The translations under genes were made by a program, and so were the position numbers. Below, piece by piece: positions 9,480 through 29,843 of a stretch of DNA of 64,000 bases (positions within the stretch are counted from its first letter, which is position 1; each line of letters begins with the position of its first letter). The notes beneath the pieces were generated by a model. That model saw only the letters and a program-made list of their open reading frames with translations, made no database searches and was not told where the DNA came from. This stretch comes from a virus, in the IMG/VR virus record IMGVR_UViG_3300031552_000001, positions 64,001 to 128,000 of that record; one strand, 5' to 3'.

Positions 9480-9512
9480 TAAATAGTCCTCCAAGAAAAA
9501 AGAAGACCTCTC

Positions 9513-9521: not shown

Positions 9522-9527
9522 AGGGCC

Positions 9528-12756: not shown

Positions 12757-12765
12757 ACAGACGCC

Positions 12766-13365
12766 TTACTCAGTTTCAGTAACCAAGAGATGATTAAGCG
12801 GTTCGCATGCTTTCCTAACGAACTTCTCTATGCCTACCAAAATAGCGGTATTTTTTGCCCTCTGGAACTGAACTACATAAGCCCCTAGTTCGGGCACTAG
12901 TTCTACAGCCGCGTCGCCGACCCACATGGCATCCACGGCATCTTTAATGAGTTGTTTTATATTTTCAGGAAAAGAAAGTGCAGAAGCTTCTTCAGATCTT
13001 CCAGGTGTGTAAACTAGCCCGGTGTGCCCACAATAGCCGCAGGCCTTTACCTCTCTGTTAGACACATCAACTACCGCTCCGCAATTTTTGCATTGAGGCT
13101 CATAGTGACCCTCTACCCACTTATCTTCTACGCCCGCCCTAGGAAACAAATGTAAAAGAACGTCATCTTCCTTAATCGTGTACTCAACAAAAAGCCGAGG
13201 TAGGTCAGTTATTTTTTCCAAAATTACGGGAGAGGCCGTCATAGGACGAGTACTCGCCGATACTTCAGATAAAGCATCCTTGGTATCGTAATACCACTCA
13301 GGCATCACCATTCCCGGCATCGCCTTCCTCACTTTCTTCGCGGAATTCACCTTCATCTGTTCCAT
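12766..13365 (-). CDS. Hypothetical protein with a zinc ribbon
   Basis: CKNCG...CGYCG; the true start is probably downstream of 13365. Confidence 0.65.
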   Translation of the reverse strand: MEQMKVNSAKKVRKAMPGMVMPEWYYDTKDALSEVSASTRPMTASPVILEKITDLPRLFVEYTIKEDDVLLHLFPRAGVEDKWVEGHYEPQCKNCGAVVDVSNREVKACGYCGHTGLVYTPGRSEEASALSFPENIKQLIKDAVDAMWVGDAAVELVPELGAYVVQFQRAKNTAILVGIEKFVRKACEPLNHLLVTETE

Positions 13366-14206
13366 CTCCGCTGTAAGAGCCAGAAGGCCCTACTAAATCG
13401 GAAATGGCAGGTATGGCTTCGTCTTTATGCGCCATTATCCAATGTCGCACTTCTTTGAGTTGCTCTTCATAGCCGCCACCCTCACCATAAAGAATATCGT
13501 ACAGAGATCGCAGCTCCCTACACAAAGCTGTGAGGGTTTTTACATTTCCATACCCATCAGCCTTGTACGCTAAGTGTTGTATTCTAAAAGAAATCTGTCG
13601 ATGGGAGTCTCTCAACGACTGTTTGTAATCATATTTTGGGTTCAAACCAGCTCTGAACAATGCTTGCTGCTCGCCACACAGCAACGGGGCCATGTAGTCG
13701 TCGTACGCCAAGTGATTACCAAGAAACAAATCCCACTCTACTCTAGTAAGGTTTCTCCTTCTCCAAAAATAGTGCTCGTAATAAATAATCATGCTCTCTG
13801 TAAGAGATTCAGATAGCCTATATTTCCTGCTCAACTTATCGGCGATTACGCTGTACGGAACATCCCCCATTAGAAGAATATGGAGGTCGTGCTGGTAGCT
13901 TTTATCCCCGTGCTCCCCGAATATATCAGTAAGCACTCTTTTCATCGGAGCGTCTGGGCGCCAAATAGTATATATACGCTCCTGCTTCATGAACTGAATT
14001 GTAGGAGCATGCCTTGCGTTATTAAAAAGGAAGTCAGGCGGAGCTTGAAAGGTTTCTAACAAGGTCTCCCAGCTTTCATCGCGAATGCTCATAAGCCCTA
14101 GATTGCGTAGAGTAGTGTTTATAGTGTCTAATGTAGGGGTTTTTTCTGGATCCCCCCAAGAAGACGCAAGAAGATACCGAATATAATACTCACTAGGGTG
14201 TCTCAA
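13298..14206 (-). CDS. Hypothetical protein, acidic C-terminus
   Basis: 302 aa ORF within the operon. Confidence 0.7.
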   Translation of the reverse strand: MRHPSEYYIRYLLASSWGDPEKTPTLDTINTTLRNLGLMSIRDESWETLLETFQAPPDFLFNNARHAPTIQFMKQERIYTIWRPDAPMKRVLTDIFGEHGDKSYQHDLHILLMGDVPYSVIADKLSRKYRLSESLTESMIIYYEHYFWRRRNLTRVEWDLFLGNHLAYDDYMAPLLCGEQQALFRAGLNPKYDYKQSLRDSHRQISFRIQHLAYKADGYGNVKTLTALCRELRSLYDILYGEGGGYEEQLKEVRHWIMAHKDEAIPAISDLVGPSGSYSGDGTDEGEFREESEEGDAGNGDA

Positions 14207-14231
14207 AGCTCGCCTCTATTCTGGTTCAGAG

Positions 14232-16259
14232 TTAATTAGAAAAACTCAGCTCTTTTTGCTGAAGAGACTGTAAACCTAAAATTACGTCTTCCAACGCCGC
14301 AAGCATTCGCTCTACGGCAACTTCTGGGACCTCTTTAAGGCCAATCCTAACCGCTAACAAAAGCTCGGCTAATTTAGACGACGCGGCTTGCAGCGCAGGC
14401 AATAGGTCAACGAAAGTAGAGACGTTTTCAGCGTTTAGAAACCCCAAACCCAAGATCTTGTCCGCTGTAAGCGCATCATCCAGTACAGTAGCTTCCTTAG
14501 CTAAAAAGTAATTGTAAATAGGGGGGTTTAGCTCCGACAGTTCCTTTTTTAGCTCTCCTCTGATGGAAGCTAGCTTCTCTCCTACAGAACCCAACACCTT
14601 GAGGCCCCCTACTGAAACTCTCTCCCCGCGTTGGGCTCTATCCAAAGCAGTTTTACAAAACGTCGGCTCCATGCCCAACGCTACCCCTAAGAACATCGCA
14701 TCTTTTCTGTTGACGAATTTGGTGTAGTCCGAGGCAACTTTAGCAATCGCGGGCCCTCTGAACGTAAATATGTCTGCGGTATCGCCTACTATATCCACCG
14801 TGCCAAGCTTGTTATCGAACGCGAGTTTCGAAAACATAGTAGGGTCAGAAACGAGCTCCGTTTTACCTCTCAGGGGCATCCAGTTTAAGAAATTGGGGAG
14901 CACCCACTCCGATTCCCCCATCTGTACTGGCTTGGCTAGTCCTTCTCCAAAAGAAAACGTTACTTGACCCCCTAGCTCTGTTTCCGCCAAGAAACGAACC
15001 CCTGTTGGGGACTGCATTGAGCTGATTACCGTCATCGGAACAAAAGCTTTTGCCGTACCGTGGTCTATGTAATAAAGAGTGCCGTACCCTTTTGGTATCC
15101 CTTTTGGTATATCAGTGGACTTACCGGCTACCTCACCCGCAATTGTTTCCTGAACAGCGTACTGGGACCCATTGGTGAATAGCGACAGAGGAAGTACCTG
15201 CAAATCCAATGTCATGATCTTTGGAAACACCCACCCTATAAGAGTGTTGCCGGTGCTATCTTGCACTTTCCAAATACCAAACGAATCGGCGGCCTTCACC
15301 TCTTCAGCTTCTAAGGTTTGCTTCACAGGAGCGTCAGGACTTACTGTAACAGAGCCGTCACTTTCCAGCCGTTCTTGCATGTCCTGATCACCCATCATGT
15401 CTTGGGCAACCGACATGGGCACCTCTTCCTGCTGAGGAGCAAACATGCCGTCCGTAGCCCACTTCACTAGCGCTCTGTTGGTTCCCAGCTTACTTAGCTG
15501 TACAACAGTAGGTTTAATATGATTGGCTACGAAAGAAGCTACTTTTTCTGGGTCTGAGGGCGATAGTCTAAGAGCAGAAGCAAACGCTGCCTTTACCCCT
15601 TCGTTTCCATTACGTACTGCCGCATTCATCGAAGGGTCTGATAATGCTTCTTTAAGTCTCGAAGCGTGACCTTCTTTAATACGCCCGTATAGCAACGGCA
15701 AAAGCGGAAGATTTTCAATTTCCTTTTGCGCACTTCCTACTTTCGCCCCTCCAGAACCAAAACCCCCAAACCCCGATCGAAGAGGGGGCTGCAAATCATT
15801 GACCAGAGAGGGGTCCATTGGTCGAAGCCTAGTAACGTCAAAAGCCTCTGGCCTCATAAGCATCTCTCGAAGTCGGCTCTCTGTTAGCCTGTAATACTTC
15901 TTACCACTAATAAAAATATCCAAAGGAGAGAGCATCTGCTCTTTTACGACAATAGGTATGTGCGCTTTGTCTAACCCGGACGTCTGCATTTCCTCTACAG
16001 TCATCGCCGTTTTAGGCCTAACCTCAATAGAGCCGAAAGCGTAGCCTCTCTCTTCATCTTGCTTGTCTATAAGTACATGTACTTCATACGTGCTCAGATA
16101 CGGAAGCTGCTTGTACGCCTCTTGAATAATCTCTTGGGGCCAGTTATCGACATTATCCCCTAATCTGGTAAGCATCCCAGCAAGCTTTTCAGTTCCCTCA
16201 AATTGGATAGGGGCGTCAAGGAACAGGGCTTCTTGTACAGACATGGTATTTCTCCTCAC
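14232..16259 (-). CDS. Hypothetical virion/head protein rich in K-x-A motifs
   Basis: 675 aa; KLAG, KVAS (twice), KLAF, KTAL, KLAS, KEAT, KLAE. Confidence 0.75.
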   Translation of the reverse strand: MRRNTMSVQEALFLDAPIQFEGTEKLAGMLTRLGDNVDNWPQEIIQEAYKQLPYLSTYEVHVLIDKQDEERGYAFGSIEVRPKTAMTVEEMQTSGLDKAHIPIVVKEQMLSPLDIFISGKKYYRLTESRLREMLMRPEAFDVTRLRPMDPSLVNDLQPPLRSGFGGFGSGGAKVGSAQKEIENLPLLPLLYGRIKEGHASRLKEALSDPSMNAAVRNGNEGVKAAFASALRLSPSDPEKVASFVANHIKPTVVQLSKLGTNRALVKWATDGMFAPQQEEVPMSVAQDMMGDQDMQERLESDGSVTVSPDAPVKQTLEAEEVKAADSFGIWKVQDSTGNTLIGWVFPKIMTLDLQVLPLSLFTNGSQYAVQETIAGEVAGKSTDIPKGIPKGYGTLYYIDHGTAKAFVPMTVISSMQSPTGVRFLAETELGGQVTFSFGEGLAKPVQMGESEWVLPNFLNWMPLRGKTELVSDPTMFSKLAFDNKLGTVDIVGDTADIFTFRGPAIAKVASDYTKFVNRKDAMFLGVALGMEPTFCKTALDRAQRGERVSVGGLKVLGSVGEKLASIRGELKKELSELNPPIYNYFLAKEATVLDDALTADKILGLGFLNAENVSTFVDLLPALQAASSKLAELLLAVRIGLKEVPEVAVERMLAALEDVILGLQSLQQKELSFSN

Positions 16260-17431
16260 TTCGAGAAAGTCGTAGTGGACAGCAGCTCAGCGAGCTGCCC
16301 GTTAAGAGACGCTAAAGCAGGCGCGGCTACAACAGGCGTTCCTGGAGCAGCGCAGGTAAAAGAGGATATTTGGGTTATCAAGCTGGTAAGAAAAGACACT
16401 AATTTATCCCCTTTGACGAAAGGAGACGTAGCTCCGTTACCGAGGTGTATTACTGGAGAGTCTAACTGAGCTTTAGTCGCACTTTTCAGAACGGCTTCCG
16501 TTTTTCCTTCTACTACTACCCGTGCGGACGTAGACCTTACAGCAGTCTCTTGCTGAGCTTCTGCCGTAAATGAGCTCCCTGCACTCAACTCTATAGAGCC
16601 GTCAGTGGCACCCATGACAATATCTCCCTCAGACACCGTCAGCCCCCAACTCTTTTTTACTTCCCATGCTATACTTCCTTCTTTGGAAATATCCATATGA
16701 GCTACTATAGCCGCGCCCTCTTCTCCAGACTCAAACACCTCCAACAGCAGTGTAGTAGCTTCGCTCTCCCCGTGGGAACCAATACTAAGCGTAGCAACAT
16801 GCCCTCGGTCGTTCCCTTTTTCCTTAACCTTCAAAGAAAATTTTGTTAAGGCCTCACCGTCCGTGGTCTGGTCATCTCTCTCTGTGCTCCACACGAGCTC
16901 TCCACCAAAGGTAAAAAGCTCATAGTTCTCACAAAAATCTCTAATGAAATTTCGAATAGGGACGTACATTCTTTGGGCTGTTGGAGTGGCCCCTATTTGT
17001 ACTACTCCCCCCCGTCTCAAAACTACAAAGTTCTCGTCTCTCGTTCGTAACATAATATCGCCGGGATTTAGGGTTTGTCTTCCTCCTCTAAAACCGTCAA
17101 AATCCATGTCATGAGCGGACTGAAAGCCTAAGACAAAAGGAGCAGCAAACCTGCCCCCGCTGGGGACACACACCCACACCATAGACCCTACTTCCGGTTG
17201 TGCGTAAACACCCTCTCCATTAGCGAAATGAAAATACGGGCTCATTACCTGTAAGTCAAAATACCTCTTATTTCCCAGTTCGCTAATGCAGTCTACACTC
17301 CAGCTCTCTATGTTAACGTTAATCACTCTACACGTTTCTATAGACGCTCCTCTCCATTCTGACTCTAATATGCTAACTGGTTGTGGAGGTCTGCCTGTAG
17401 GGCCTAAGTTATTTAAAGGGGTAGTTGGCAT
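16256..17431 (-). CDS. Baseplate spike/gpV/Gp5-OB-like protein
   Basis: N-terminal OB-like RVINVN...PEVGSMVWV, a beta-rich repeat region, and C-terminal FVKGDKLVSFLTSLITQI...PGTP, typical of baseplate assembly protein V-like genes. Confidence 0.65.
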   Translation of the reverse strand: MPTTPLNNLGPTGRPPQPVSILESEWRGASIETCRVINVNIESWSVDCISELGNKRYFDLQVMSPYFHFANGEGVYAQPEVGSMVWVCVPSGGRFAAPFVLGFQSAHDMDFDGFRGGRQTLNPGDIMLRTRDENFVVLRRGGVVQIGATPTAQRMYVPIRNFIRDFCENYELFTFGGELVWSTERDDQTTDGEALTKFSLKVKEKGNDRGHVATLSIGSHGESEATTLLLEVFESGEEGAAIVAHMDISKEGSIAWEVKKSWGLTVSEGDIVMGATDGSIELSAGSSFTAEAQQETAVRSTSARVVVEGKTEAVLKSATKAQLDSPVIHLGNGATSPFVKGDKLVSFLTSLITQISSFTCAAPGTPVVAAPALASLNGQLAELLSTTTFSK

Positions 17432-17450
17432 TGTATGGGGGCCTTTAGCT

Positions 17451-20400
17451 CTAATACGCCCAAGGGGTGTCAGAAGGCGGTTGACCGAATTCTTTTCCTA
17501 CAGCCATGCCGGGTATGGGGTGGGTACCGTGCAAAACAGACTTCCACCCTTTCGCTGCGGCATCCAGTATAGTGCTCTTCAAGCTCCTGCTTTGAAGTCT
17601 GGCAATCCAGTCAGTTTGTAGCTCCAACGGAAGCATGTTCACGCCCTGCAACACCGGCTTATACGTCACTTGTTTCTGCCCCGGCTTCAAGTTACGATTG
17701 AACGCCGCTATCTCCGAAGTAGCCGCATGATCTCCTCTAAGCAATGTGTCGTGATCTCCAGGGTCTACTACTTCGCTCAAATTAGTCATAGCCCTGACAA
17801 ACGTCTCCACATTACGTCTTCGAACAGGCCCCTCGTCTTTATATGCGTTCCAAATCTCGTCCGTTAGATACTGCTGCACAGTGTTTATATTAGTGCGCGC
17901 CAACATATCTCTTGGGTTTTTGGGGCCGTCAGAAAGAGCGTCCCCCGCCTTAACTTCTTGCCCCTTCTTTACGGATATTGACCTAGTTGCAGGCACATAG
18001 TGAGGCACGGCAGACTCTAAACTAGACGCCTTATTCGGAGACACCATGACTCTCCAGCCGCCTGCCGGGTCTTTCTCTATTTTCGACACTGACCCTTCTG
18101 TATCTGCTAAAGTAGCCGCCCCGGGAAGTTTTTTAGGCACGTTAAGCAACTGCTCCAGTCGATTAAATAGACTTGTAGCGCTAGTGCCTTTAGCTCCTAC
18201 AATTCCGCCGGTATGAAAAGAATTATGCGTGCGTATTTTATTAGCGCTAAACGCCCTACTTGCAGTAGACAAATCGTAAGTCCAACCGCTGTACTTTACT
18301 TCCCTTACAGACACCACTTTCGAATAATAAAGATCGGGATAAAGCTCTGGTCCCGCATATCTGCATAAAAAAGACCAAGCTTTTTTAAAAAGAGAAGTCA
18401 CTTTCTCAAAAACCCCAGGACTTTTAGAAGAAGACCACTCTCGAGTAATGCCTACGTATCTTCCATTGATTGCCCTTGTGTGAAAAGCAGCCTCTTGTTG
18501 TTCTTTATAAGCCTCTTTCGAAATCAGTGTGGTCCTTAAACACCCTGCGCAACTTACGAGCACCAAATCATACTTAGTGCTATTTCTATAGCCCCTAACA
18601 TCACGCACGGGTTCTGCGCATCCACAAAAACCACACTTGCCGGAGCCTGTTCTCGCCAACGTTGCGTGGTTGCCTTGCGCTATCAAGTAACTTCCGCTCT
18701 CCGTCCTCATTTCGTACATCGTATCGCAAGGCTCGTGCCTCTGTATTGTGTACACCGCGGTATATTCATACCCATCCCATACTTTTAGCCGCTCTGTAAC
18801 TTTTGTTTCCATCCCTCTATCTACAGAAACGTCGCTGTATACTTGATCCCAAAGAGATTTCAGAGTCAGTATAGATACCGCCCCGTCTGTAGTTTTTATG
18901 CGCACCTCAGAGTCTTCGGCTAAGCAGTTCATGGCTAACTGCGTTGCGGGCTCACCCAATGCCTGCGCAGCTATTACTCCGACGTTAGAGCCGGGAGAAT
19001 GTAGCTTTCCTTCTTCATTCAGACCGTAGCATTTGCTACATAAGCCCTTACCGTGAGCGCATTTTAGTGGAGATCTAACTTCCAGCTTAGTAATTTTGTT
19101 GTTTCTCAGCCGGCTCAGGAGATCGGGGGTCACTAAAGTACCTGCGGGCACTTTTCCTTTATCTATACCGGCCTTTACTCCCAAATCGATATCCTTAACA
19201 GTAAATCTGTCAAGAACGTCGTTGTTGTCTACGGGCAGAACCACGCCCTTAGTGGTGCCGCAATCATCATCCACTATCAGTTGATTCATAGCGGTATTCA
19301 CAAGATGTTTAGACATCTTACCGGGAGCCTGGGTACCCTGAACTCGGCCTATTGTGCCCATTCGAGCTCCGTGCATAGAGGCAAAGTAAGAGCCGATATC
19401 CAGCCCCTCTGAATAGGATTTAGGGATAGGGATCGGGACAGGTTCTCCCCTAGAATCGGCAACCAGCATAGGCGCCACAGTCATTTGCTTAAACTGAGAC
19501 CAACTGCCTCTAGCACCAGACTTCACCCAGTCGTACATTCTATTCTTGCTACGGTCTGCTCGTTTCTTGGCCACGCCGTGAATTTTATCTGCGGCAGAGG
19601 CATAAAGCTTTACGATCTCTTCCTTTCGTCTGATTGGACCATATGTCTTGGACCGTATTTTAGCTTCCTTGCCGGCAGCGTCTTTCAATACCTCATCTCG
19701 ATATTCACGGTCTGATAAGAAGTCATCTAGCCCAATAGACATCCCAGTAGCGTATTCGTTTCCGATATCCTTTAGCCGGTCAGCAACTACCCCAAAATCC
19801 TTCGGAGACTTCTTTGCAACTTCCGTAAGCAAAGAGTTCAAAGTCTTCTTATCGAGCATGAAAGAAGTGTCATTTAGTATCCTAGAGTCTCGAAGGTCTG
19901 TAGGTAAGGAGTGGTACAGCATAACTCTACCTACCGTAGTCTTTACGGGCCCTGCTGCTTTTTTGAACAGGGCGCCAAAGGGGTCTCCGTCCAACTCGTT
20001 TAGCTTAATAGGATCGGTAAGCCGAATACGGCCCTCCTTTACCGCTCTCGCGGCATCCGCCACAGAAGAGAAACGAACAGGATCCCTATCCTCTACTTCC
20101 GTAAGCTTATAAAGCCCCATCATTGATTCTTGAGTAGGCTTAGACATAAGGTAGCCGGTAGTAGGGCTAAACAAATTAAAGGAAGGCAGCATCTTTATCG
20201 CTTCCTTCACAGCCTTCTGACTCACAGGTACGAAAGCGCTCATTTTGTCACCGTCGAAGTCAGCGTTGAAACCCGAAGTGACTAACGGGTGGACTTGAAC
20301 AGCCTTTCCTTCAATAAGCCTAGGTCTAAATGCTTGTACTCCAAACTTATGTAAAACAGGGTCTCTCTTAATAATGATAGGACGTTCATCTACCACAACC

Positions 20401-23400
20401 TGCAAGGCATCCGCTGCCGCGGGATGGTTTTTCTTTACCATGTCTTGTGCATCCAGAGGCTTGTGCCCTAACTGCACTAAACGACGTATTACAAAAGGCT
20501 TATATAGCTCCGCCGCTGCTTTTCTTGGTAACCCTACTTCATCTAAACTAAGAGAAGGCTCAGGGGTGATAACTCCCCGCATAGACAGGTCTTGTCGCCT
20601 TCCTATGATTTTATCTTGGAAAAAACCCTCCTTAGGCTGCCCACCTTTCTCGCCAGACCCGGAGATAGTTTGCATTATAGCGTTTCTATGCTTGCCTTGA
20701 TGAACCCCTCCCGTAAGCATTACAGCTTTTAACCCGTCGTATAGAGCAGACTGAAGCTCTACTTTTTCTTCTGGGGGAAGTGCAGAATCGAACCCTTTCA
20801 GCTTCGAATTTACATGTCCTATGTGATTGTAAAGGCGGTTCACGTCATCGTACCGAATCACGCCATTATCCATAACTATGATAGGTCTGAAAACCGGAGG
20901 CAGCACCGGCAGATGCTTCATTGTGTACGCTTCAGAAGGGGACAAACCGGCCCTATCCAGGGCTCTTAGGTATTTAAGTTTTTTGTTGGCATCATTAAGC
21001 TTCGAAGCTCTAAGAGTAGGTAAACGATCTTCTATGTCTTTCTTCATCTTTTTTAGGTCTAGTGCTTTAACAGCGGCTACTATCGCTTGAGGGCCTGTCA
21101 TACCGTTTAGGCGCTCCCCTCCTGTAACTATGCGATTAAAGCTATTTTGGTTTAGACCAAGCAGAGAAGATATGGGCCCCTCAAATACAGGATTCGGCAT
21201 TCTTTCCGGAAGAGGAACATGCGACCATTTCGTACCGCGTACGCCGCCCGTAACTTTTGGATCAAATATACCTCCCACTTCCTCACGAGCATCCTTAGCC
21301 CACAACGCTCTACCCGCGTCAGCTAAGGCCCCATTGCTCATTTCTAAGACTTTTTTGTCGGTAAGGGGCTGTAGTATTAGGTTGTTACCCTCTTTGCTGA
21401 TATCTAGCCCCATTCCCTTGAGGTATCCTTCGAACTTTTTGAACACGAACGGCACTTTTGGGGTAGGCACTGAATCGCCTGCCTGTAGCTGAGTCCAAAA
21501 CTCATCGTTGAAATCCGACTTCAAGGTCTGCATTTCTCTGATGTTTTCTCTAGCGTTATGGGCCAGTAGGGCATACAGCCCCATTGCGTCCATAGTCTGT
21601 CCGCCTTTAGGTCCCCCACCGGAAGGAAGTAGGTTAGAGTCATACGCATCTCTAGATCGTACAGACAGCCCCTTATCGGCCGTATGGTGAAGCTTCAAAA
21701 TATATTGTGGGCCAGTAAGTACGTCAGGGAATTTTCTTCCCGTCTCGGGGTCATAGAGGTCCTCGGTGTCGCTCACGCCGTTCTTTTTCAGCTCATCTCT
21801 AAGATGGCGAGTGTAGTCTGTAATTTTCGGATCAAAATTATTGACGACGTAAGGCTTACCTTTTTTCTCAGCAAGCTTTGCAGCAGCAGTCTCCAACACT
21901 TGCCCCAAATTTATCCGGGTCGGGACCCCAGTCTGGTTTAGAAGCACCTCTACCGGCTTGCCTTCTTTTGTCTTAGGCATCTCGCTGTCTGGAATTACTC
22001 GAGTAACCACTCCCTTATTTCCATGACGACCAACTATCTTATCTCCCACGTCTGCGGGAACCTCGGCCCTAACATAGACGGTAGTGTTTTTTCCGTGTTT
22101 TGCTACCCTAGTGACTGTCCCGGGAACATCTTTGGTCCATCTAATCTCTCTAGGCTTCCACGGTCTAATAAGGCCTTTCGAAAATAGACCTAATTTCTGT
22201 TCGTCAGGAGTTACGTTTTCCTCCTTCAACACTCCAAATAGGATATCGTCTTTGTTTACAGTTTGTCCCTCTCTTATAATGGCGTCCTCATCCAGCTTAT
22301 CTGATTGCTCTTTCGTAACCTTACCGGCCATATAAGACATGAATTTCTTTTTATCTAACTGGATACTTTTTTCGGCCGTAACTTTTTCTCTAAATAAATG
22401 TTCGCTGTTTCCGCACCATCTAGGCTTCCCGTTCCTACGAACGTAAACGACTCCAGAGGGCACTGACACGCACCACACTTTAATAGGCTCTTTAAGTTTT
22501 GTAAGCTTGAGTTTAGAAAAATCAGAGGCATTAAGGTGAGGCGAGTGTTCCTCTCCAAGTATTGATACTCGGTAGGAATCTACCGTAGCGGTTACTACTT
22601 CTCCAGTAGACTTTGTAGAGGAATAGCCTGCTTTGCAGTGAATGGACCAATTAGCAGAGTACCCGCAGTGTAACGCTAACCGCTGCACATCGTCTCGTAG
22701 TCGAACACTAGAGGTAAAATATGACCCCTTCTTTTGCATAGAAAGTCCGCCGTCCCCTAAAAGCAGACCTTCCAAAAGTATGCGCGACTGCCTTTGGCTC
22801 AAAGACCAAACCCATTCTGGTAGGTACTTATCTACGGCTTTACCAAACTGACTAAGATAAGACGCCGCTTGCTTGCTAGACCAAAGCCAACGATCGCAGC
22901 TAGCCAAAGTCCCAAACCCTAACCGGGACGAAAGCTCTTTCAGAACTTTTTTTACTCTAGGCTTAAACTGCCGTATCGAGACCTTCGGGGACTTTTCGTT
23001 GCCCCCTCCTTTATAATCGCAGTGACCCTCTGCAATATACAACCCGAACAACAGGCACCAGTCGTCCATGTTTATAGAAAGTGGAGAGATTTCACGAGAA
23101 TTATATTCAGGACCATGGGGGTTACATTTTCTTATCGACGGCAACCTAAAGACATCTTGATCTGGGCCCGCATTCTCTGCTGTGCGAAGTAGTCTAACTC
23201 TTTTATTTAATAAAAGACTAGCTTCTACTTTTTCGAACACCTTCTTCTTAGACGGACTGACGTACAGTTTATGAGTAGGCGTAACGCAAATATCAAATTG
23301 ACGAGAGGAAGCCATCGCCATTGTGTCTGACAATCCATCATGAAACTCTATTATGCTTTGGTAAGACAGTTTTCCATCTTGAAGAGAAGCCACAAGGTCG

Positions 23401-25421
23401 GATTTTCTCAACTGATCCCTTGTTAACCACCCTCTGTTACTAAGAATCTCTGTACGGGCATCAAAACAGGTAAGTTTTTTAGCGGCCGTCTCAGACACCA
23501 CCACCCCGTCTTCGAAGTTCAACCCCTTCCACGGCATATAAGCCACTCTAAGATTCGTGCCCAGCGCCAGGGTGCCGTTCTTAGTAAAATTGATGTCAGC
23601 AACCACCTGCCCAGATGATACGTTGTCACCTACTTTAACCAAGGGGGTGCTGCTAAGAACACTTTTGTCGTCATTTAGAGGATAGTCATCGTACAGTTGA
23701 ACTTCTTTTTTCGACCCGTCTTTTGCCTTAACGATTATTGCATCTTTTTTAATCGACTCTACAACTCCATTAATGGGCGAGACGTGGCTTACAAAAGCAC
23801 CTAAACCCTGCTCAAAAGTGCGAGAGGGGCTATCACTTCTTGTCTGCACAAGAGGCTCCTCTCTGTCCTTTAGAGACACCGCCTGCTCTAATTGCCGAGA
23901 GGCGACCATAGTTCTATTGCCTTGGTTGTTTTGCAAAAACGGAATGATGTTTGCGGACAAGTCGAACATGCCTTTACTTGAAGCCAGTACGTAGTCTACG
24001 TCCTTTGGCTTCAGTACAGTCACCGTACCCTCCGAATCGGACACCTTCACAGAGTCCTTAACCGGCACGGGCTTACCCGCCTTCCATTCATATTGATCGG
24101 GGAATGCTAAATTAGACTTGAGAGCCTGATAGGGGTTTATGAACTCCCTTTTTCCAGTCTTCACGTTGAACACCGGAATTTTTAAGTCCTGGCCGTCCTT
24201 CACCACATGGGAAGCAAGCTGAAGTGTGACGCCGATGCGATCCGATTCTGGCGTATGGATTGGGTCCAAGAACCCTAAATGACTGGGGTTAATGGACTGA
24301 GCTTCTAGAGAAACCTCGTGGGTGGATTTGATCCCTCCCTCACCTGGAGCAAAAAGAGTAGTTCTACGATTACCTGAAATAAAACTTATAGGGTTGGTTT
24401 GAGTCGGTCTTTCAGACAGCACGGAACTTACAAAGAACTTGCGCAGGGGCTTACCAAAAACGTCGGGGTTGATAATGTCCCTAACTCGATCGTGCTTGTC
24501 TAACGTATTCCCTATCTTTCTTTTTACCCCTTTTTCTACCTGCCATTTCTCTAAACGCTCATTTATAAGGTCTTCCGCTGAGTAAAGATCCTTGAAGGAC
24601 AAGGAGTCTCTATCATCAGGCTCAACTTTTTGTTGAGACACCTGTAAGATTTTTTTGGAGCCCGCCAATAAAGACGCACCGTTGACTTTATCGTAGGGCT
24701 TCCCCAGTGTTAATTGGGTTGAGTCCGGGCGAAGCACCGTCTTATCAAACTCGCCTATAACTAACTTCTTAGCTTCTTCTACCGTTTCTGGATTAGAGCC
24801 TCTAACCGCTCTATAGAACTTTCTGAGAGCGTTCTCAGCATTTGTGCTCTTGTTAGCGCTCAGAATATCCTTTCCCCATGTTCTTTCTATGGAGTCGTCA
24901 TCTACCCCCATCGTCTTCAGAATAGGGTAAAGAGGTATTTGGGCCTCTCCATAGCGAAGGGTCATTTTTTGAGTTTTCGGACTGAAATCCATATCAAACG
25001 CCTTGCCCTTGGCTAGATTCCACTGAGAGGTGAGTTCTCCATTTCTTCGAATTCTGGTATAAACCCCCGACTTCATTCGAAATAGGTTATTTACCTGCCA
25101 CTCACTGCCATTGACGATATAGCTATAACGGCGAGTTATTTTTGGTAATTGAGCGACATTGACCACCTGTTTATCAACCACCTTACCTGTACTTTTATCC
25201 TTAAGCTCGAGTTCCGCGCGTATCGGAACAGTCCAGCTTCTGCCTTTTATTCTTGCGTCCTTTTGCTCTCGTATGTCGTCTATGTCCTTGTCGTCATCTA
25301 CCCACACCTTCTTTGCTACAAGAGTGTGCTGTTTTCCCTCGATAGGGAAATAATTCTGGATAGTACGAGCCGTTCTTTTTTTGAGACTCTCGAAAGCCTC
25401 TTCAGGAGAATAGTGCGCCAT
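17451..25421 (-). CDS. rpoBC: Single-chain DNA-directed RNA polymerase (beta-beta' fusion) with two inteins
   Basis: Beta motifs: NFEDG, GDKIVGRHGNKGVV, PTRINLGQVLE, KLHH. Beta' motifs: KIIGRRQD, RDPVLH, FNADFDGDKM (~20247-20267), GEPATQL, CGT...C.HGKGLCSKCYG. There is no stop codon at the beta/beta' junction (~21390). Confidence 0.95.
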   Translation of the reverse strand: MAHYSPEEAFESLKKRTARTIQNYFPIEGKQHTLVAKKVWVDDDKDIDDIREQKDARIKGRSWTVPIRAELELKDKSTGKVVDKQVVNVAQLPKITRRYSYIVNGSEWQVNNLFRMKSGVYTRIRRNGELTSQWNLAKGKAFDMDFSPKTQKMTLRYGEAQIPLYPILKTMGVDDDSIERTWGKDILSANKSTNAENALRKFYRAVRGSNPETVEEAKKLVIGEFDKTVLRPDSTQLTLGKPYDKVNGASLLAGSKKILQVSQQKVEPDDRDSLSFKDLYSAEDLINERLEKWQVEKGVKRKIGNTLDKHDRVRDIINPDVFGKPLRKFFVSSVLSERPTQTNPISFISGNRRTTLFAPGEGGIKSTHEVSLEAQSINPSHLGFLDPIHTPESDRIGVTLQLASHVVKDGQDLKIPVFNVKTGKREFINPYQALKSNLAFPDQYEWKAGKPVPVKDSVKVSDSEGTVTVLKPKDVDYVLASSKGMFDLSANIIPFLQNNQGNRTMVASRQLEQAVSLKDREEPLVQTRSDSPSRTFEQGLGAFVSHVSPINGVVESIKKDAIIVKAKDGSKKEVQLYDDYPLNDDKSVLSSTPLVKVGDNVSSGQVVADINFTKNGTLALGTNLRVAYMPWKGLNFEDGVVVSETAAKKLTCFDARTEILSNRGWLTRDQLRKSDLVASLQDGKLSYQSIIEFHDGLSDTMAMASSRQFDICVTPTHKLYVSPSKKKVFEKVEASLLLNKRVRLLRTAENAGPDQDVFRLPSIRKCNPHGPEYNSREISPLSINMDDWCLLFGLYIAEGHCDYKGGGNEKSPKVSIRQFKPRVKKVLKELSSRLGFGTLASCDRWLWSSKQAASYLSQFGKAVDKYLPEWVWSLSQRQSRILLEGLLLGDGGLSMQKKGSYFTSSVRLRDDVQRLALHCGYSANWSIHCKAGYSSTKSTGEVVTATVDSYRVSILGEEHSPHLNASDFSKLKLTKLKEPIKVWCVSVPSGVVYVRRNGKPRWCGNSEHLFREKVTAEKSIQLDKKKFMSYMAGKVTKEQSDKLDEDAIIREGQTVNKDDILFGVLKEENVTPDEQKLGLFSKGLIRPWKPREIRWTKDVPGTVTRVAKHGKNTTVYVRAEVPADVGDKIVGRHGNKGVVTRVIPDSEMPKTKEGKPVEVLLNQTGVPTRINLGQVLETAAAKLAEKKGKPYVVNNFDPKITDYTRHLRDELKKNGVSDTEDLYDPETGRKFPDVLTGPQYILKLHHTADKGLSVRSRDAYDSNLLPSGGGPKGGQTMDAMGLYALLAHNARENIREMQTLKSDFNDEFWTQLQAGDSVPTPKVPFVFKKFEGYLKGMGLDISKEGNNLILQPLTDKKVLEMSNGALADAGRALWAKDAREEVGGIFDPKVTGGVRGTKWSHVPLPERMPNPVFEGPISSLLGLNQNSFNRIVTGGERLNGMTGPQAIVAAVKALDLKKMKKDIEDRLPTLRASKLNDANKKLKYLRALDRAGLSPSEAYTMKHLPVLPPVFRPIIVMDNGVIRYDDVNRLYNHIGHVNSKLKGFDSALPPEEKVELQSALYDGLKAVMLTGGVHQGKHRNAIMQTISGSGEKGGQPKEGFFQDKIIGRRQDLSMRGVITPEPSLSLDEVGLPRKAAAELYKPFVIRRLVQLGHKPLDAQDMVKKNHPAAADALQVVVDERPIIIKRDPVLHKFGVQAFRPRLIEGKAVQVHPLVTSGFNADFDGDKMSAFVPVSQKAVKEAIKMLPSFNLFSPTTGYLMSKPTQESMMGLYKLTEVEDRDPVRFSSVADAARAVKEGRIRLTDPIKLNELDGDPFGALFKKAAGPVKTTVGRVMLYHSLPTDLRDSRILNDTSFMLDKKTLNSLLTEVAKKSPKDFGVVADRLKDIGNEYATGMSIGLDDFLSDREYRDEVLKDAAGKEAKIRSKTYGPIRRKEEIVKLYASAADKIHGVAKKRADRSKNRMYDWVKSGARGSWSQFKQMTVAPMLVADSRGEPVPIPIPKSYSEGLDIGSYFASMHGARMGTIGRVQGTQAPGKMSKHLVNTAMNQLIVDDDCGTTKGVVLPVDNNDVLDRFTVKDIDLGVKAGIDKGKVPAGTLVTPDLLSRLRNNKITKLEVRSPLKCAHGKGLCSKCYGLNEEGKLHSPGSNVGVIAAQALGEPATQLAMNCLAEDSEVRIKTTDGAVSILTLKSLWDQVYSDVSVDRGMETKVTERLKVWDGYEYTAVYTIQRHEPCDTMYEMRTESGSYLIAQGNHATLARTGSGKCGFCGCAEPVRDVRGYRNSTKYDLVLVSCAGCLRTTLISKEAYKEQQEAAFHTRAINGRYVGITREWSSSKSPGVFEKVTSLFKKAWSFLCRYAGPELYPDLYYSKVVSVREVKYSGWTYDLSTASRAFSANKIRTHNSFHTGGIVGAKGTSATSLFNRLEQLLNVPKKLPGAATLADTEGSVSKIEKDPAGGWRVMVSPNKASSLESAVPHYVPATRSISVKKGQEVKAGDALSDGPKNPRDMLARTNINTVQQYLTDEIWNAYKDEGPVRRRNVETFVRAMTNLSEVVDPGDHDTLLRGDHAATSEIAAFNRNLKPGQKQVTYKPVLQGVNMLPLELQTDWIARLQSRSLKSTILDAAAKGWKSVLHGTHPIPGMAVGKEFGQPPSDTPWAY
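18222..18926 (-). mobile_element. Mini-intein B in the RNAP beta' trigger loop (235 aa, no LAGLIDADG, Zn-ribbon insert)
   Basis: TQLAMN|CLAEDS...IRTHN|SFHTGG; internal CGFC...CAGC. Confidence 0.88.
22407..23468 (-). mobile_element. Intein A in the RNAP beta part (354 aa, LAGLIDADG, ends CGN)
   Basis: KKLT|CFDART...RWCGN|SEH; motifs LFGLYIAEGH and LLEGLLLGDGG. Confidence 0.9.
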
Positions 25422-25508
25422 TTGTGCTCCCGCGCTGTCTTTAGCGATGCCTAACCGCCTGAGCGCTTCAGCATCCTACACCAGTAAAAGAGGTTCCAGC
25501 AACAACCC

Positions 25509-25751
25509 TTGGTGAGAATAAGCGAGCTACTTCGACATAAGAAGAGTGAAGAGGCAATAGTGCCCTTACGTACGGAGACTGAAAAAATGGAAGAAAAATC
25601 GTCGTGCGAGATGTTTAAACAAGATTTGGATTCGATGGTGGGGGGTACGTTTCCAACAGACACTACGTCTGACTCTACAGAAGACAGTAACCAAAACCCC
25701 GAAACTGAACCCACAAACGAGAGCAGTAACGAAAAGACAGTAAATGATTAA
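25509..25751 (+). CDS. Small acidic hypothetical protein
   Basis: 80 aa, start uncertain, low-complexity acidic tail. Confidence 0.4.
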   Translation: MVRISELLRHKKSEEAIVPLRTETEKMEEKSSCEMFKQDLDSMVGGTFPTDTTSDSTEDSNQNPETEPTNESSNEKTVND

Positions 25752-25798
25752 GCTGTTTCTGCTTGGCTTACTCGCAGGCTTAATGTGGAGAATTTCCT

Positions 25799-26365
25799 AT
25801 GAACTCAAAAAAGCCCTTCATTCGTCCATCGATCAAGACGGAGAATAGCTCATCAGAAATACCACGAAGGGCCGCACCAAAAACTACAAAATCGATAAAT
25901 CTCGGCCCGTGCCTCCTATGTGGGGGCCTAGTTACAGGGCCAACTGCTATTCGACTAAAGCACGGCTGCGTATCAAATCGAAGAGGGATAGAATTCCTGC
26001 CACTACCATTTGACGACCAAACAATGGTTAAGTGGCTCTGTATCGGGTGCGCTCTGGATAACAACGTTGTCTCTGACGATGTTAGCGGGTTCTCTACCCT
26101 GTTAAACGGCCTAAAAAGCGACGGCCAGTGTTGCCTGTGTGGGCAAGTTATCGAACCCTACCCCCTAAAGGAGTGGTCTAGCGCAATACTGATAGAATTC
26201 GGAATGGCGGTTCAAAGTAATAAAGGGCCCTTTCATATTTTCCACCCCAGCAAGTCGGGCCATCTTCACTACTTCTGCCTGGATGACTTAAACCTGGAAC
26301 TGTGGAGGATAATAGAGAGAACAGACGAGCCTGATTACCAAAGGTATCTGCCGACATGCATATAG
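25799..26365 (+). CDS. Cys-rich hypothetical protein (two CxxC...H/C clusters)
   Basis: CLLC...HGC...CIGC and CCLC...HLHYFC, suggesting an internal duplication. Confidence 0.65.
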   Translation: MNSKKPFIRPSIKTENSSSEIPRRAAPKTTKSINLGPCLLCGGLVTGPTAIRLKHGCVSNRRGIEFLPLPFDDQTMVKWLCIGCALDNNVVSDDVSGFSTLLNGLKSDGQCCLCGQVIEPYPLKEWSSAILIEFGMAVQSNKGPFHIFHPSKSGHLHYFCLDDLNLELWRIIERTDEPDYQRYLPTCI

Positions 26366-26610
26366 GAAAATCCAAAGTGGTGCTGTGTGACCATTGCGGA
26401 AAGGCACTTACAGAGGAGGAAGCTGATAGTAGCACTCGCAACGGAAAGGTGCGCCACTTCTGCCGCGGTAATTGTATGAATGAATACTACCTCGAACAGC
26501 TAGGCAGTGAAGCTGAAAGACGCACCTACGAAAAGTACAGACACGAATACAACCTCATCTACAAGATGGTGTGCCCCGCCTGCAAATGGCGCTTAAAGAG
26601 ACTGCTATGA
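26356..26610 (+). CDS. Small zinc-finger protein (TRASH/YHS-like)
   Basis: CDHCG...HFCRGNC, then CPAC. Confidence 0.6.
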   Translation: MHIGKSKVVLCDHCGKALTEEEADSSTRNGKVRHFCRGNCMNEYYLEQLGSEAERRTYEKYRHEYNLIYKMVCPACKWRLKRLL

Positions 26611-26655
26611 TCCACCAAACGAGACTTCTATTTACAGCAAAGGAAGGATATTGCC

Positions 26656-26922
26656 ATGGTAGAGAAGATCTTAAATGCCCTCTTGGCCACAAGAAGAAGG
26701 GAACCTCAAACATTTGCCAGAATAATGAATTTCCTCGGCAAAGGAAGAGCGCCAATCGAATTTGATGCACCCGACATAGCAAGGCTTCCGTGGAAGGAAA
26801 CGTCTACTGGAAAATTTATCGTCCTCGTGAAAAACAAAAAGGTCGTCATGGCCTTAGGATGCCCGGAAGGAAAAAAGCCTTACGTTACGACGGTAGAATG
26901 CACAAACATCGTACCTCAATAA
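26656..26922 (+). CDS. Hypothetical protein
   Basis: AAGGAAGG upstream; the gene ends just before a terminator. Confidence 0.6.
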   Translation: MVEKILNALLATRRREPQTFARIMNFLGKGRAPIEFDAPDIARLPWKETSTGKFIVLVKNKKVVMALGCPEGKKPYVTTVECTNIVPQ

Positions 26923-26932
26923 CATCAAACAG

Positions 26933-26956
26933 GAAAAAGCCTCTCGGGGCTTTTTC
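26933..26956. terminator. Bidirectional intrinsic terminator
   Basis: GAAAAAGCC-TCTCGG-GGCTTTTTC between convergent genes. Confidence 0.8.
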
Positions 26957-26962
26957 TTAGCC

Positions 26963-27826
26963 CTACAAGGAAACAGTGGGCGTAGGTTTAGGCCCTAATG
27001 GAGCTGTAGGGACTCCACCTTCAATCAGAGGCATTCTAACAGGAGCGGGTGCTGCTCTGCGGGGGAGAGTTAAAGGGGCCCTAGCGGGAGCGGATTTAAT
27101 CTGAGATAAGGCTCGGCCCTTAGAACCGCCTCCTATAAGCCGATAAAGCTGTTCCTTATTTAGCCCTTGTTCAGACCTTCCTATCGCTTTTTTCATATAG
27201 GGAGTAAATTTACGCAGTCCCGATTCGGTTAAGTTAAGTACGTTACCGGCCATACCCCCCATACCCTCAGCCTCCCCTTTATGCATAGGAAGAACATCAA
27301 TAGCTTTTTCGCCTCGGATATTGGCCTTCCTAATGTCCTCTAATTGATAGCCCTTCGAAGCTCCAGCTCTTTGGAGCTCTTCTTTGATTGTAGCTTCTGC
27401 TCTACGTCCAGGCTCTCCTCCCGGTACGTATTCATGAAAAGTAGCCCGACCGCCTCTGCCTGTTCTTGCGAAGCCGTAAGTCTTAGCCAGCCTCGGAGAA
27501 TCTACGACCTTAGACATTTGTAGCTTGCGCCCTACCATCATAGGAGAAGCTATAGCGGAAGTGGGGTCATAGAGCTTACGAACCGCTACCCCATGCTCCG
27601 GGTGAGCTACCAAATCGGCTATTCCTTCGCTACCGCCTCCGAGGTGCTTGATGTGAGACCCCATAGCTGAGGGTTTCAACACTCCAGGGGTCTTTGCTAG
27701 TCGGCTAGCCTGCTCAAGCGCCCCACTGGTTCCTTTAGAGAACAGGTTCTTAATAAGACGGAAACCGGCTCTGGCTGAGATCTTCTCAAGCTCGTCTTTA
27801 AAAGCAAGTAAAGAAGTAGAATTCAT
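26963..27826 (-). CDS. Minimal protein-kinase-like protein with N-terminal FKDELEKIS tag
   Basis: LGGGSEGIADLV (Gly loop), VAVRKL, SPRLAKTYG, FHEYVPG, EDIRKANI (catalytic loop), AIDV. Confidence 0.6.
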   Translation of the reverse strand: MNSTSLLAFKDELEKISARAGFRLIKNLFSKGTSGALEQASRLAKTPGVLKPSAMGSHIKHLGGGSEGIADLVAHPEHGVAVRKLYDPTSAIASPMMVGRKLQMSKVVDSPRLAKTYGFARTGRGGRATFHEYVPGGEPGRRAEATIKEELQRAGASKGYQLEDIRKANIRGEKAIDVLPMHKGEAEGMGGMAGNVLNLTESGLRKFTPYMKKAIGRSEQGLNKEQLYRLIGGGSKGRALSQIKSAPARAPLTLPRRAAPAPVRMPLIEGGVPTAPLGPKPTPTVSL

Positions 27827-29835
27827 GCCGCTGCAGCCTCGGGCCCTCTCATGGGAGGTTTCTGCTCAGGCATAGGCTGAGCCGCAGAGTTCACATTAGC
27901 CCCTCTAGACTGCTGCATAAGCTGCAATATCAACGAATAGAGTTGAGGATTACTGCTTCTCATCTGCATAAGGTGCTGCTGCTTCTCCTGCTCGGGTAGC
28001 TGATTCAGCCAACTCACTACCTTATTCGCTATATCAAGAACCCCAAGTTGGGAAGGTTGATTAGACACCAATTGAGATTCACCAGAAGCAGTAGGGGATT
28101 CCTCCTGACTCATCTCCATAGGAGGCACCTGACCCGCTTGATTCATCATCCCGGTTTGAGCGTTTATGGCAGCACCTTGCGCTATAGGGCTAGACATGCC
28201 AGGCTGACCTGCGGCCGCCATACCCCCCTCTTGCATCGCTCTTTGGTCTTTTGGATCCATAGGGGCTACTTGTTGCTCCATCAAAATTTTCTGCGCTCTA
28301 GTTTGATACTTGATTTGAACCAGTTGGGCCTCACCTTGAATGCCTGCCTGAGCCAAAGCTTGAGACCTTTGATTTTCGAGCACTCTCTTTTGCTCTACGG
28401 ATATTAGCTCAGATTCTTTGACTGCATCCCAGTCCATGTCCTCAAGTAAAGACTTGTCAGACAACTTACCCGCTTGATTCATTTGCAAAAATAGGGCGCT
28501 ACGCTGCAAATCATCCGCCATTTTGAACCGTTTGTAATGTACAGGTACGGTCTCCCACCCCATATACGCGCCTATATTTGGCAGGATAAAATCAGTAACC
28601 AACTGTTTATGTTGTGTCCTTTGATCTAAAAAATGATTCTCCAAAATTCTCAGAGATACGTTTGAACCGCTATAGCTCATTCCACCGAAGACGAACTCTA
28701 TCGGGACTCCCATGCCTGCAATAATATGCTCTGCCCATACGCGATATTCTTGTGCCAACATTAAGGCTCTTCCATCGCCGCCTAAAGTCTGTTGGCCTAC
28801 TGGAATAGGAAGTAGTGGGATGTAGTTGTTATCTAACCTCCATCGAATAATCTCCTGCTCTATTTTGTCTCGCCATTGTGTAAGATTAACAGACGAATAT
28901 ACAGAAGCATCTGGAGAGGAGGTCTGTGGAAACAGCAAGCGTAATGGGACGATATGTTCTACTGCAATGGCTTCTTGGGCCTTACGCAATATTTGGAGGT
29001 AGAAAGCGTCTTTGAGAACAGGAAGAACCATGGGCATCCCCCACCCCTTGTCCTTTTGGGCAATGGTAGGGCGCTTCATGTGGTAAATGTTATCCCGACT
29101 AAACAATAACGCTTTATTCTGACGAAGGGCCTCAATAAACACTTGAGGAGTGCGCTCTATGATATGCCGCTTAGCCATTCGGACATCATTCGCAAGCATA
29201 GGAGGGATAACGTAGTAGTATCTGCTCTCTCCCGTAGCCTCATTGTGCTGAATTGTGACGTACTCCGGGTTCCACCTAATTAAATGAATATCCCTTACTG
29301 ATCGAACGTAATGATCTCTGACCTGAAACTCTTGGTGGTGGTCGCATCTTTGACAGTTACCTACAAACTTGTAATCTCTAAAAGTGTACTTCTGTTTTTC
29401 TACCCTAGACCGATGCCCGCAACTCTTGCAAATGAGAAGCTTATGGAAAGGGAATGAAATAGATATGAACGCGTTACCGTAAGCTTGATAGTCAAGCCCT
29501 GCTTCCACTTCAAACTTCTTGAAGTTTAAAACTGACCCAAAACAATACTCCCATTGCTTACGAAGCGGCTCGTTTTCTGTATCAAAGACTAAGTCAGTTA
29601 TGGGGTATTCTGCCATTTTAGAACAGACGGCGTTGATAAGCGGGTTAGTTAAAAAGTAATACCTGCACCAACGCAACATCGTTTTAAACGACGACGGCAA
29701 ATACGTATGAGCTATATCAAAAAAAGGAGAAGGGTATCTAATGGCCCCCAGGGCTTCACTAGTTAACGACCGTCCAGTATTCCTAGAGAATCGCATACCG
29801 CCAGAAGGACCGAATGTTAGAGCATCTATGCTCAT
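27823..29835 (-). CDS. Portal protein
   Basis: Size and position; NPLINAVCSKMAEY, WGMPMVLPVLKDAFYLQILRKAQEAIA, IIAGMGVP; coiled-coil and Q/M-rich C-terminus. Confidence 0.7.
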   Translation of the reverse strand: MSIDALTFGPSGGMRFSRNTGRSLTSEALGAIRYPSPFFDIAHTYLPSSFKTMLRWCRYYFLTNPLINAVCSKMAEYPITDLVFDTENEPLRKQWEYCFGSVLNFKKFEVEAGLDYQAYGNAFISISFPFHKLLICKSCGHRSRVEKQKYTFRDYKFVGNCQRCDHHQEFQVRDHYVRSVRDIHLIRWNPEYVTIQHNEATGESRYYYVIPPMLANDVRMAKRHIIERTPQVFIEALRQNKALLFSRDNIYHMKRPTIAQKDKGWGMPMVLPVLKDAFYLQILRKAQEAIAVEHIVPLRLLFPQTSSPDASVYSSVNLTQWRDKIEQEIIRWRLDNNYIPLLPIPVGQQTLGGDGRALMLAQEYRVWAEHIIAGMGVPIEFVFGGMSYSGSNVSLRILENHFLDQRTQHKQLVTDFILPNIGAYMGWETVPVHYKRFKMADDLQRSALFLQMNQAGKLSDKSLLEDMDWDAVKESELISVEQKRVLENQRSQALAQAGIQGEAQLVQIKYQTRAQKILMEQQVAPMDPKDQRAMQEGGMAAAGQPGMSSPIAQGAAINAQTGMMNQAGQVPPMEMSQEESPTASGESQLVSNQPSQLGVLDIANKVVSWLNQLPEQEKQQHLMQMRSSNPQLYSLILQLMQQSRGANVNSAAQPMPEQKPPMRGPEAAAA

Positions 29836-29843
29836 AGACCACC

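Follow-up and report, generated by a model that had tools for sequence, protein, structure and literature searches.

An uncultured tailed phage with a 192-kb genome encodes an RNA polymerase in which the bacterial beta and beta' subunits are joined in one reading frame. The gene lies in a stretch of 64,000 nucleotides (hereafter the window) spanning positions 64001-128000 of the 192,137-bp IMG/VR record IMGVR_UViG_3300031552_000001, which CheckV rates as complete. Our analysis confirms that beta and beta' form a genuine single chain of bacterial-like character: the protein is a phage-encoded RNA polymerase of the already known two-barrel type, and its family is abundant in metagenomes of many environments. 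The literature that we searched (the mReC paper, jumbo-phage reviews, the Iyer/Aravind study and the paper on Salmonella phage Arash) contains no account of a phage polymerase with beta and beta' fused in this way; the family appears there only through gene annotations and the Arash proteome. We consider it probable that the protein is an active, sigma-dependent enzyme that operates without alpha and omega and is probably packaged in the virion.

A single chain from beta to beta'

The frame is free of stops over its whole length (Table 1) and matches nine Pfam Rpb1/Rpb2 families, seven of which exceed Pfam's curated cut-off. Rpb2_2/3/6 are followed by Rpb1_1 to Rpb1_5, and Intein_splicing and LAGLIDADG_3 domains are found in addition. 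In PHROGs, the protein is divided over two families of 'unknown function', ~1200 positions each, one beta-like and the other beta'-like. Removal of two inserts, delimited by alignment to intein-free relatives, leaves a chain of 2067 amino acids (aa), the same figure that had been given for one frame running from beta through beta' in an earlier note made from the nucleotides alone (the sequence-only reading). The spliced chain aligns to Escherichia coli beta 45-1340 and then to beta' 173-939 and 1154-1365, with ~32% identity to E. coli beta'. The junction itself is direct: beta has lost its last four residues and beta' its first 14. The junction sequence, GLDISKEGNNLILQPL, is kept in every aligned relative, including gp206 of Arash and protein 0261 of D69, two more distant phages.

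The beta part contains the GDK..GRHGNKG motif with two active-site lysines (residues 1126-1137, equivalent to E. coli beta 1063-1074), and the beta' part contains the catalytic NADFDGD motif, whose DFDGD core is invariant across a 22-sequence family alignment. Many columns of this alignment are invariant, among them residues of NADFDGD, GDK and the second zinc (Zn) site. Bridge helix, trigger loop and second Zn site are all present and align to E. coli beta' 768-805, to 915-945 and to C814, C888, C895 and C898, respectively; the second Zn site keeps all four cysteines, and a flap-tip-like helix is found as well. The CxC...CxxC signature of the beta' N-terminal Zn-binding domain is absent, with VTGGVRGTKW at its place, and the same holds for all aligned relatives. 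Alignments to E. coli and to these relatives thus bear out the sequence-only reading, which had listed the NADFDGD motif, the flap-tip-like helix, the trigger loop and the second Zn site as kept and the N-terminal Zn cysteines of beta' as lost.

The same reading had called the enzyme minimal, which is correct in part. Compared with E. coli, the chain lacks beta 1-32, 220-358, 939-1047 and 1169-1210, as well as beta' 146-176, ~965-1182 and 1366-1407. However, ~415 of these ~640 residues belong to beta i4, beta i9 and beta' SI3, which we take to be inserts specific to the E. coli lineage, and the compactness is therefore partly an effect of the comparison with E. coli. The truly unusual losses make up a smaller share: beta lacks its N-terminus, and beta' lacks its Zn-binding domain, residues 146-176 and its C-terminal tail. 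At the rifampicin-pocket positions Q513, D516, H526, S531 and L533, the phage protein has E, T, G, T and F, and the polymerase would probably be insensitive to rifampicin.

Inteins in the polymerase and intein-sized insertions in its relatives

Both inserts have the sequence features expected of class 1 inteins, with the patterns C...TPTH...GN/S for intein 1 and C...THN/S for intein 2 and matches to Pfam Intein_splicing and LAGLIDADG_3. Intein 2 interrupts the trigger loop, between TQLAMN and SFHTGG.

Large insertions are common in the family: at least one of 120 aa or more is present in 105 of 244 fused polymerases, and nine or more sites are used. The commonest positions are next to NADFDGD (47), around the trigger loop (41), in the beta catalytic barrel (30) and at beta ~386-421 (21). 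These sites were located from the ends of BLAST segments, and the inserts are to be read as intein-sized candidates. By this measure the fused polymerase family is unusually rich in large, intein-sized insertions. In the genome studied here, the gene for the terminase large subunit probably carries two inteins as well, judging from its Pfam matches (Table 1); the Arash terminase large subunit matches this frame in separate pieces.

A large family of viral fused polymerases

A word-indexed search returned 315 proteins, and the best 120 of these are nearly all 2040-2110 aa long, or longer with intein domains, some being encoded on contigs of up to 217 kb. An exhaustive HMMER scan with residues 1014-2165, a query that spans the junction, yielded at least 150 clusters (50% identity). 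With the query, the 150 best representatives all share 38-62% identity; almost all of them have 2000-4700 aa, a few being shorter and apparently truncated, and most matches cross the junction. Given that the fusion recurs in >150 distinct protein clusters, it is not an assembly artefact.

Relatives of the polymerase are encoded on 211 IMG/VR contigs. In 185,579 species genomes only six matches were found, each on a phage-sized contig binned into a metagenome-assembled genome, which argues that the family is viral and not a prophage of known isolates. The GenBank phage collection holds nothing above ~30% identity to the polymerase, the best matches being the Vibrio phages D69, D148 and D181 and Salmonella phage Arash.

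The sequence-only reading had suggested a phylogeny of the spliced protein. In a beta' tree (32 rows, 836 columns, LG+C20+F+G4, quick search), all fused proteins together with Arash and D69 form one clade with a Shimodaira-Hasegawa-like approximate likelihood ratio (SH-aLRT) support of 100 and a stem of 1.19 changes per column. This clade is separate from six bacteria of several phyla (support 100) and also from three phages in which beta and beta' each have their own gene, namely Cobetia phage Carin-5, Rhizobium phage RHph_Y65 and Vibrio phage 1.031.O. Arash and D69 sit on a long branch nested among the fused members and, owing to this nesting, the split of their polymerase genes looks secondary; with a long branch and a quick search of 32 rows, such an origin is provisional.

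A sigma factor, but no alpha or omega

No alpha or sigma gene had been visible to the sequence-only reading, and the window indeed contains neither; the genome-wide search for sigma that it proposed did recover a sigma-70-family gene, located outside the window (Table 1). Tblastn with gp10, the annotated sigma factor of Arash, identifies the frame at E 4e-24, and Pfam Sigma70_r3 matches it at 1e-10. A profile of the protein family matches RpoS, SigA, SigB, FliA and sigma-F in the Protein Data Bank over regions 2 to 4, and the predicted structure (predicted local distance difference test, pLDDT, 83) matches sigma factors across ~250 columns in a fold search. The gene was detected only by way of Arash gp10: genome-wide, Sigma70_r2 (PF04542) has no match, and Sigma70_r4 matches only a ParB-like protein and an 87-aa helix-turn-helix protein. 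For the latter, a role as a minimal sigma, as the target of an anti-sigma or simply as a regulator is conceivable. A search for related loci from the single sigma protein came back empty, reflecting a limit of the method, and homologue and profile searches found the family.

Members of the gp10-like sigma family occur in five of five other fusion-carrying genomes, and sigma and fusion share one contig in the three genomes with contigs >160 kb. We infer that the protein acts as the cognate sigma of the fused polymerase and binds to it. For alpha and omega, the profiles PF01000, PF01193 and PF01192 find no match in the complete 192-kb genome and do find matches in all 14 control genomes. The genome encodes a single beta' catalytic domain and no second polymerase set.

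The polymerase gene lies between portal and spike

The sequence-only reading had placed a tail gene 19 nt downstream of the polymerase, and this assignment holds: the gene starts at 17431 and its 391-aa product is predicted to be the central spike. Pfam matches to DUF2345 and Phage_base_V are weak, and the best Foldseek matches of the AlphaFold model (pLDDT 76) are the spikes of extracellular contractile injection systems, type VI secretion system VgrG, R2 pyocin, phi92 and P2 gpV. The 19-nt gap between polymerase and spike contains no strong terminator-like hairpin; one such hairpin is found after the gene for the 287-aa protein, at 26933-26956.

This arrangement is conserved. Across 82 related loci, the portal is followed by the polymerase, the homologue of the 391-aa protein, a homologue of a 675-aa protein and, further on, terminase, all on the polymerase strand except for one terminase match. 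The spike homologue follows the polymerase immediately in 75 of the 82 loci, on the same strand in 75 of 75, and the portal lies upstream in 62 of the 82. Between portal and polymerase there are 1-2 kb with a few small genes on the opposite strand. Such genes also separate the portal operon from the polymerase in the window, and the two related contigs compared at this spot have two or three small reverse genes there as well; the polymerase therefore probably begins its own transcription unit. The neighbouring proteins themselves are poorly covered by profiles: PHROGs has no family for five of them, and the 675-, 302-, 276- and 287-aa proteins and the portal have no Pfam match above threshold.

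Several sequence signals lie elsewhere in the genome. A promoter-like motif, GAAAA followed after 15-17 nt by GGTATAAGA, occurs in intergenic regions outside the late block and mostly on the + strand; 15 of 66 near-matches fall within the intergenic 7% of the genome. The polymerase gene has no GGTATAAGA-type motif upstream, and sigma-70-like sites are rarer in 12000-30000 than in shuffles. Two near-identical palindromes built from TGACTACAT look like operators or an origin. The morphogenesis block also includes an ATP-dependent DNA ligase.

Table 1. Features of the fused polymerase gene, its surroundings and the rest of the genome. Positions refer to the window unless marked as genome; positions marked genome lie outside the window, except 96742.
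Feature	Position	Strand	Details
Fused beta-beta' RNA polymerase gene	17451..25421	-	Stop-free 2656-codon frame plus stop, 7971 nt
N-extein, beta-like, residues 1-651	23469..25421	-	Protrusion/lobe, rifampicin-pocket region, fork loop; Pfam Rpb2_2, Rpb2_3; E. coli beta alignment
Predicted intein 1, residues 652-1005, 354 aa	22407..23468	-	In beta at KKLT/SEH; Cys1, two LAGLIDADG motifs, ...CGN then Ser+1
Middle extein, residues 1006-2165	18927..22406	-	Beta flap, catalytic barrel, beta/beta' junction, beta' clamp to trigger loop
Beta C-terminus to beta' N-terminus junction, residues 1338-1353	21363..21410	-	GLDISKEGNNLILQPL; alignment of relatives
Short loop in place of beta' N-terminal Zn-binding domain	21219..21272	-	E. 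coli beta' 66-97 missing
NADFDGD, residues 1719-1725	20247..20267	-	Catalytic Mg-binding motif
LFKKAA, residues 1818-1823	19953..19970	-	Variable loop at the Arash/D69 split position; 22-row alignment
Predicted intein 2, mini-intein, residues 2166-2400, 235 aa	18222..18926	-	Cys1, CxxC...CxxC insert, ...THN then Ser+1
C-extein, residues 2401-2656	17451..18221	-	Beta' C-terminal part, without SI3 or C-terminal tail
Predicted central spike, VgrG/gpV-like protein, 391 aa	16256..17431	-	19 nt downstream of polymerase gene
Three small frames (188, 84, 88 aa)	25799-26922	+	Between portal operon and polymerase
287-aa protein	26963..27826	-	Between portal and polymerase; N-terminal tag AFKDELEKISA
Portal protein homologue, 670 aa	27823..29835	-	Upstream of polymerase; tblastn with Arash gp204 portal, 31% identity, E 2e-85
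ATP-dependent DNA ligase	11200-12756	-	LigD-type 3'-phosphoesterase N-domain; within morphogenesis block
Terminase large subunit homologue, 1474-aa frame	5124-9548	-	Two Intein_splicing and two LAGLIDADG_3 stretches, Hint match (Pfam)
F-x-[DE]-E-L-x-K-[IV]-[AS] carriers in window	26963-27826; 11200-12756; 11000-11194		287-aa protein (N-terminal); ligase (C-terminal); C-terminal
F-x-[DE]-E-L-x-K-[IV]-[AS] carriers outside window	genome 62210-62515; 145618-146580; 147394-147612		
Sigma-70-family gene, 264-codon frame	genome 144811-145605	-	Homologue of Arash gp10
87-aa protein	genome 162570-162833	+	Little beyond sigma-70 region-4-like helix-turn-helix; Pfam E 5.5e-8
GAAAA-GGTATAAGA motif sites	genome 24371, 29546, 96742 (window 32742), 157803, 176001, 179161, 179997, 186601, others	mostly +	Promoter-like
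Two near-identical palindromes	genome 22763-22811; 178053-178101		Two tandem TGACTACAT copies per arm around a short hairpin

Comparison with known polymerases

The closest known relatives are Arash (OQ632216), in which gp206 comprises beta and the N-terminal part of beta' and gp216 the C-terminal part of beta', and D69, D148 and D181, which have likewise two genes (~1525 and ~606 aa). Arash and D69 share with the fused polymerase the junction, the loss of the beta' Zn-binding domain, a homologous sigma factor and the beta' clade, and in Arash the portal lies directly upstream of the polymerase, too. In contrast, their chain is split after the catalytic barrel, at a position that maps to ~residue 1821, whereas the phage protein continues without a separate C-terminal third of beta'. 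They have AADYDGD at the active site and a degenerate trigger loop, both elements being bacterial-like in the fused polymerase; they lack inteins at its intein sites, and identity is ~30%. The sequence-only reading had held that its interpretation would fall if the protein belonged to an already characterised phage family. This is half the case: Arash and D69 share junction and Zn-domain loss, and the Arash polymerase is known from virion proteomics (PMC10585845), and no member of the family is known to have been studied biochemically.

Large tailed phages with bacterial-like, reduced beta and beta' (~1000 and 900 aa) have been described as mReC (Weinheimer and Aylward, 2020). All of the table entries covered here are two separate proteins, some with two sets per contig (PMC7481178), in contrast to the single chain of the fused polymerase. 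Similar isolates with separate genes, some with an adjacent sigma gene, are Carin-5, 1.031.O and RHph_Y65; in these, the polymerase genes lie among DNA-metabolism genes and not between portal and spike. All three fall outside the fused clade, in a comparison limited to these isolates. In Carin-5, both large polymerase genes are labelled 'subunit beta', the first (1083 aa) being beta' because of its NLDYDGD motif, and a sigma gene lies directly upstream.

The phiKZ and AR9 enzymes are also two-barrel phage polymerases without alpha and omega, and the virion carries one of their two sets (PMC7598289, PMC13282480). However, their beta and beta' are each distributed over two to three polypeptides in two paralogous sets, and gp68 or gp226 takes the place of a sigma-70 homologue. 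The fused polymerase is one chain and one set with a true sigma-70-family protein, and the genome has a single beta' catalytic domain; we therefore reject membership in this group. The crAss-like gp66, YonO and the tape-measure-fused RNA polymerase of P23-45 likewise combine both barrels in one polypeptide, and the crAss and P23-45 enzymes are virion-borne (PMC7481178; bioRxiv 10.1101/2022.12.01.518664). Yet, these proteins are barely detected by beta and beta' profiles and most bacterial modules are absent, whereas flap, clamp, bridge helix, trigger loop and second Zn site are retained in the fused polymerase. Its strong Pfam homology to beta and beta' excludes it from the crAss type.

Natural rpoB-rpoC fusions of Helicobacter and Wolbachia, as well as the engineered beta::beta' of E. 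coli, are full-size enzymes that use an alpha dimer and omega. Bacterial fusions resemble the phage protein in that the C-terminus of beta is joined to the N-terminus of beta' in one chain; the phage lineage differs by having no alpha and omega genes and by its trimmed junction termini. The distinct, still bacterial-like phage polymerase announced by the sequence-only reading is thus distinct from the phiKZ/AR9 and crAss types, but it is far from unique and is part of a metagenomic family of very large size.

Probable virion packaging and alternative explanations

If the polymerase is active and packaged, it would be expressed late, together with the morphogenesis genes. Both inteins, the one in beta and the one in the trigger loop, would have to splice out first to yield the mature chain, and an alpha-free core could then fold with the covalent beta-beta' link standing in for the assembly platform that the alpha dimer provides. 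The phage sigma, encoded ~55 kb away, would add promoter specificity, and the enzyme would be packaged into the head, delivered with the DNA and begin transcription once inside the next cell. Later gene classes would probably be served by newly made enzyme as well, as this is the only polymerase gene of the genome. Packaging is suggested by the conserved late morphogenesis block in which the gene resides and by the abundance of polymerase pieces and sigma in Arash virion preparations, where mass spectrometry ranks gp206 as the top protein by spectra (3516), assigns 1210 spectra to gp216 and also detects the sigma factor gp10 (PMC10585845). The virion carriage that the sequence-only reading had considered possible is plausible on these grounds.

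Several observations weigh against this interpretation. The penultimate residue of intein 1, ahead of the terminal Asn, is Gly instead of His; Gly is tolerated at this position by many inteins. The missing Zn-binding domain of beta' touches sigma and upstream DNA in bacteria, and holoenzyme geometry may therefore differ in the phage enzyme. Host alpha may be used. The fully fused clade has no cultured member, and Arash, on which the packaging argument draws, is only ~30% identical and sits on a long branch. Moreover, the 116 'virion' proteins of Arash include ribonucleotide reductases and primase (PMC10585845), and abundance alone is no proof of packaging there because carry-over from the lysate is likely.

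The main alternative accepts a real, sigma-dependent polymerase that stays out of the virion: early genes would be left to the host RNA polymerase, and middle and late ones to the phage enzyme made during infection, following a T7-like logic; the location of the polymerase gene among structural genes would be historical. The apparent contamination of the Arash virion proteome by enzymes would fit this scenario, as would the GAAAA-GGTATAAGA motif, which could serve the host polymerase, most copies being on the + strand and outside the late block and none upstream of the polymerase gene. However, a middle or late gene would be unexpected in a conserved late block, so close to the spike and on its strand in every locus where the two adjoin, and spectra of Arash gp206 exceed those of the major capsid protein. 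We regard an unpackaged enzyme as somewhat unlikely, though it deserves to be kept in mind. It is highly improbable that the gene was recently captured from a bacterium with an rpoBC fusion, as in Helicobacter or Wolbachia, and has no phage lineage of its own. The bacterial-looking catalytic motifs and the degree of identity to E. coli beta' could be taken to favour such a capture, but the proteins form a separate, long-stemmed clade apart from the six bacteria of the tree, the few matches in species genomes are all on phage-sized contigs, the synteny with portal and spike is conserved, and Zn-domain loss and trimmed termini are family-wide. We reject a recent capture because of the distinct clade, the phage-only distribution and the conserved synteny. 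That the frame is a decaying pseudogene or arose by faulty assembly or annotation is hardly conceivable for 7971 nt without a stop, with the same junction in independent clusters from many samples and with catalytic columns that are invariant, and we reject this explanation as well.

A shared motif as a lead to targeting or processing

The packaged-enzyme reading raises the question of how polymerase and sigma could enter the capsid, and a short motif offers one lead. The pattern F-x-[DE]-E-L-x-K-[IV]-[AS] fits six sites in the genome, in several unrelated proteins and never more than 40 residues from a terminus, where ~30% would be expected by position. Two of the carriers adjoin the sigma gene. 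The sigma family has a conserved N-terminal E-L-E-K-x-A-A, and 58 of 83 members have a loose form of the motif, always within their first 70 residues; two sigma relatives have two or three copies. In the polymerase, LFKKAA occupies a variable loop at the very position where the Arash and D69 chains are split. L-x-K-x-A-A is kept in ~10 of the 12 loop-bearing rows of the 22-row alignment, the loop being a feature of the subclade around the phage; these rows are related sequences, and the count is therefore not an independent statistic. LFKKAA is a suggestive candidate for a targeting or cleavage site. That the shared motif recruits polymerase and sigma into the capsid, or marks their processing there, seems doubtful at present.

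If the motif is a head-protease or targeting site, the enzyme might be delivered as one chain, or it might be cut into the same two pieces that its cultured relatives encode separately. The phage would then inject, along with its DNA, a natural, self-contained, alpha-free core-plus-sigma system.

Implications

To our knowledge, multisubunit-type phage polymerases come in two forms only, namely the fragmented sets of phiKZ and AR9 and the barely recognisable single chains of crAss-like phages, YonO and P23-45. The family reported here constitutes a third solution: a well-conserved, bacterial-like chain of ~2050 aa with a true sigma factor and without alpha and omega. If the enzyme is active as we propose, a covalent link between beta and beta' can replace the alpha platform in nature, and structural studies as well as orthogonal transcription could draw on the core-plus-sigma pair as a compact system. 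The enzyme would also represent a third strategy of polymerase delivery, next to those of N4 and phiKZ. Finally, the nesting of Arash and D69 within the fused clade bears on the debate as to whether split phage polymerases are primitive or derived.

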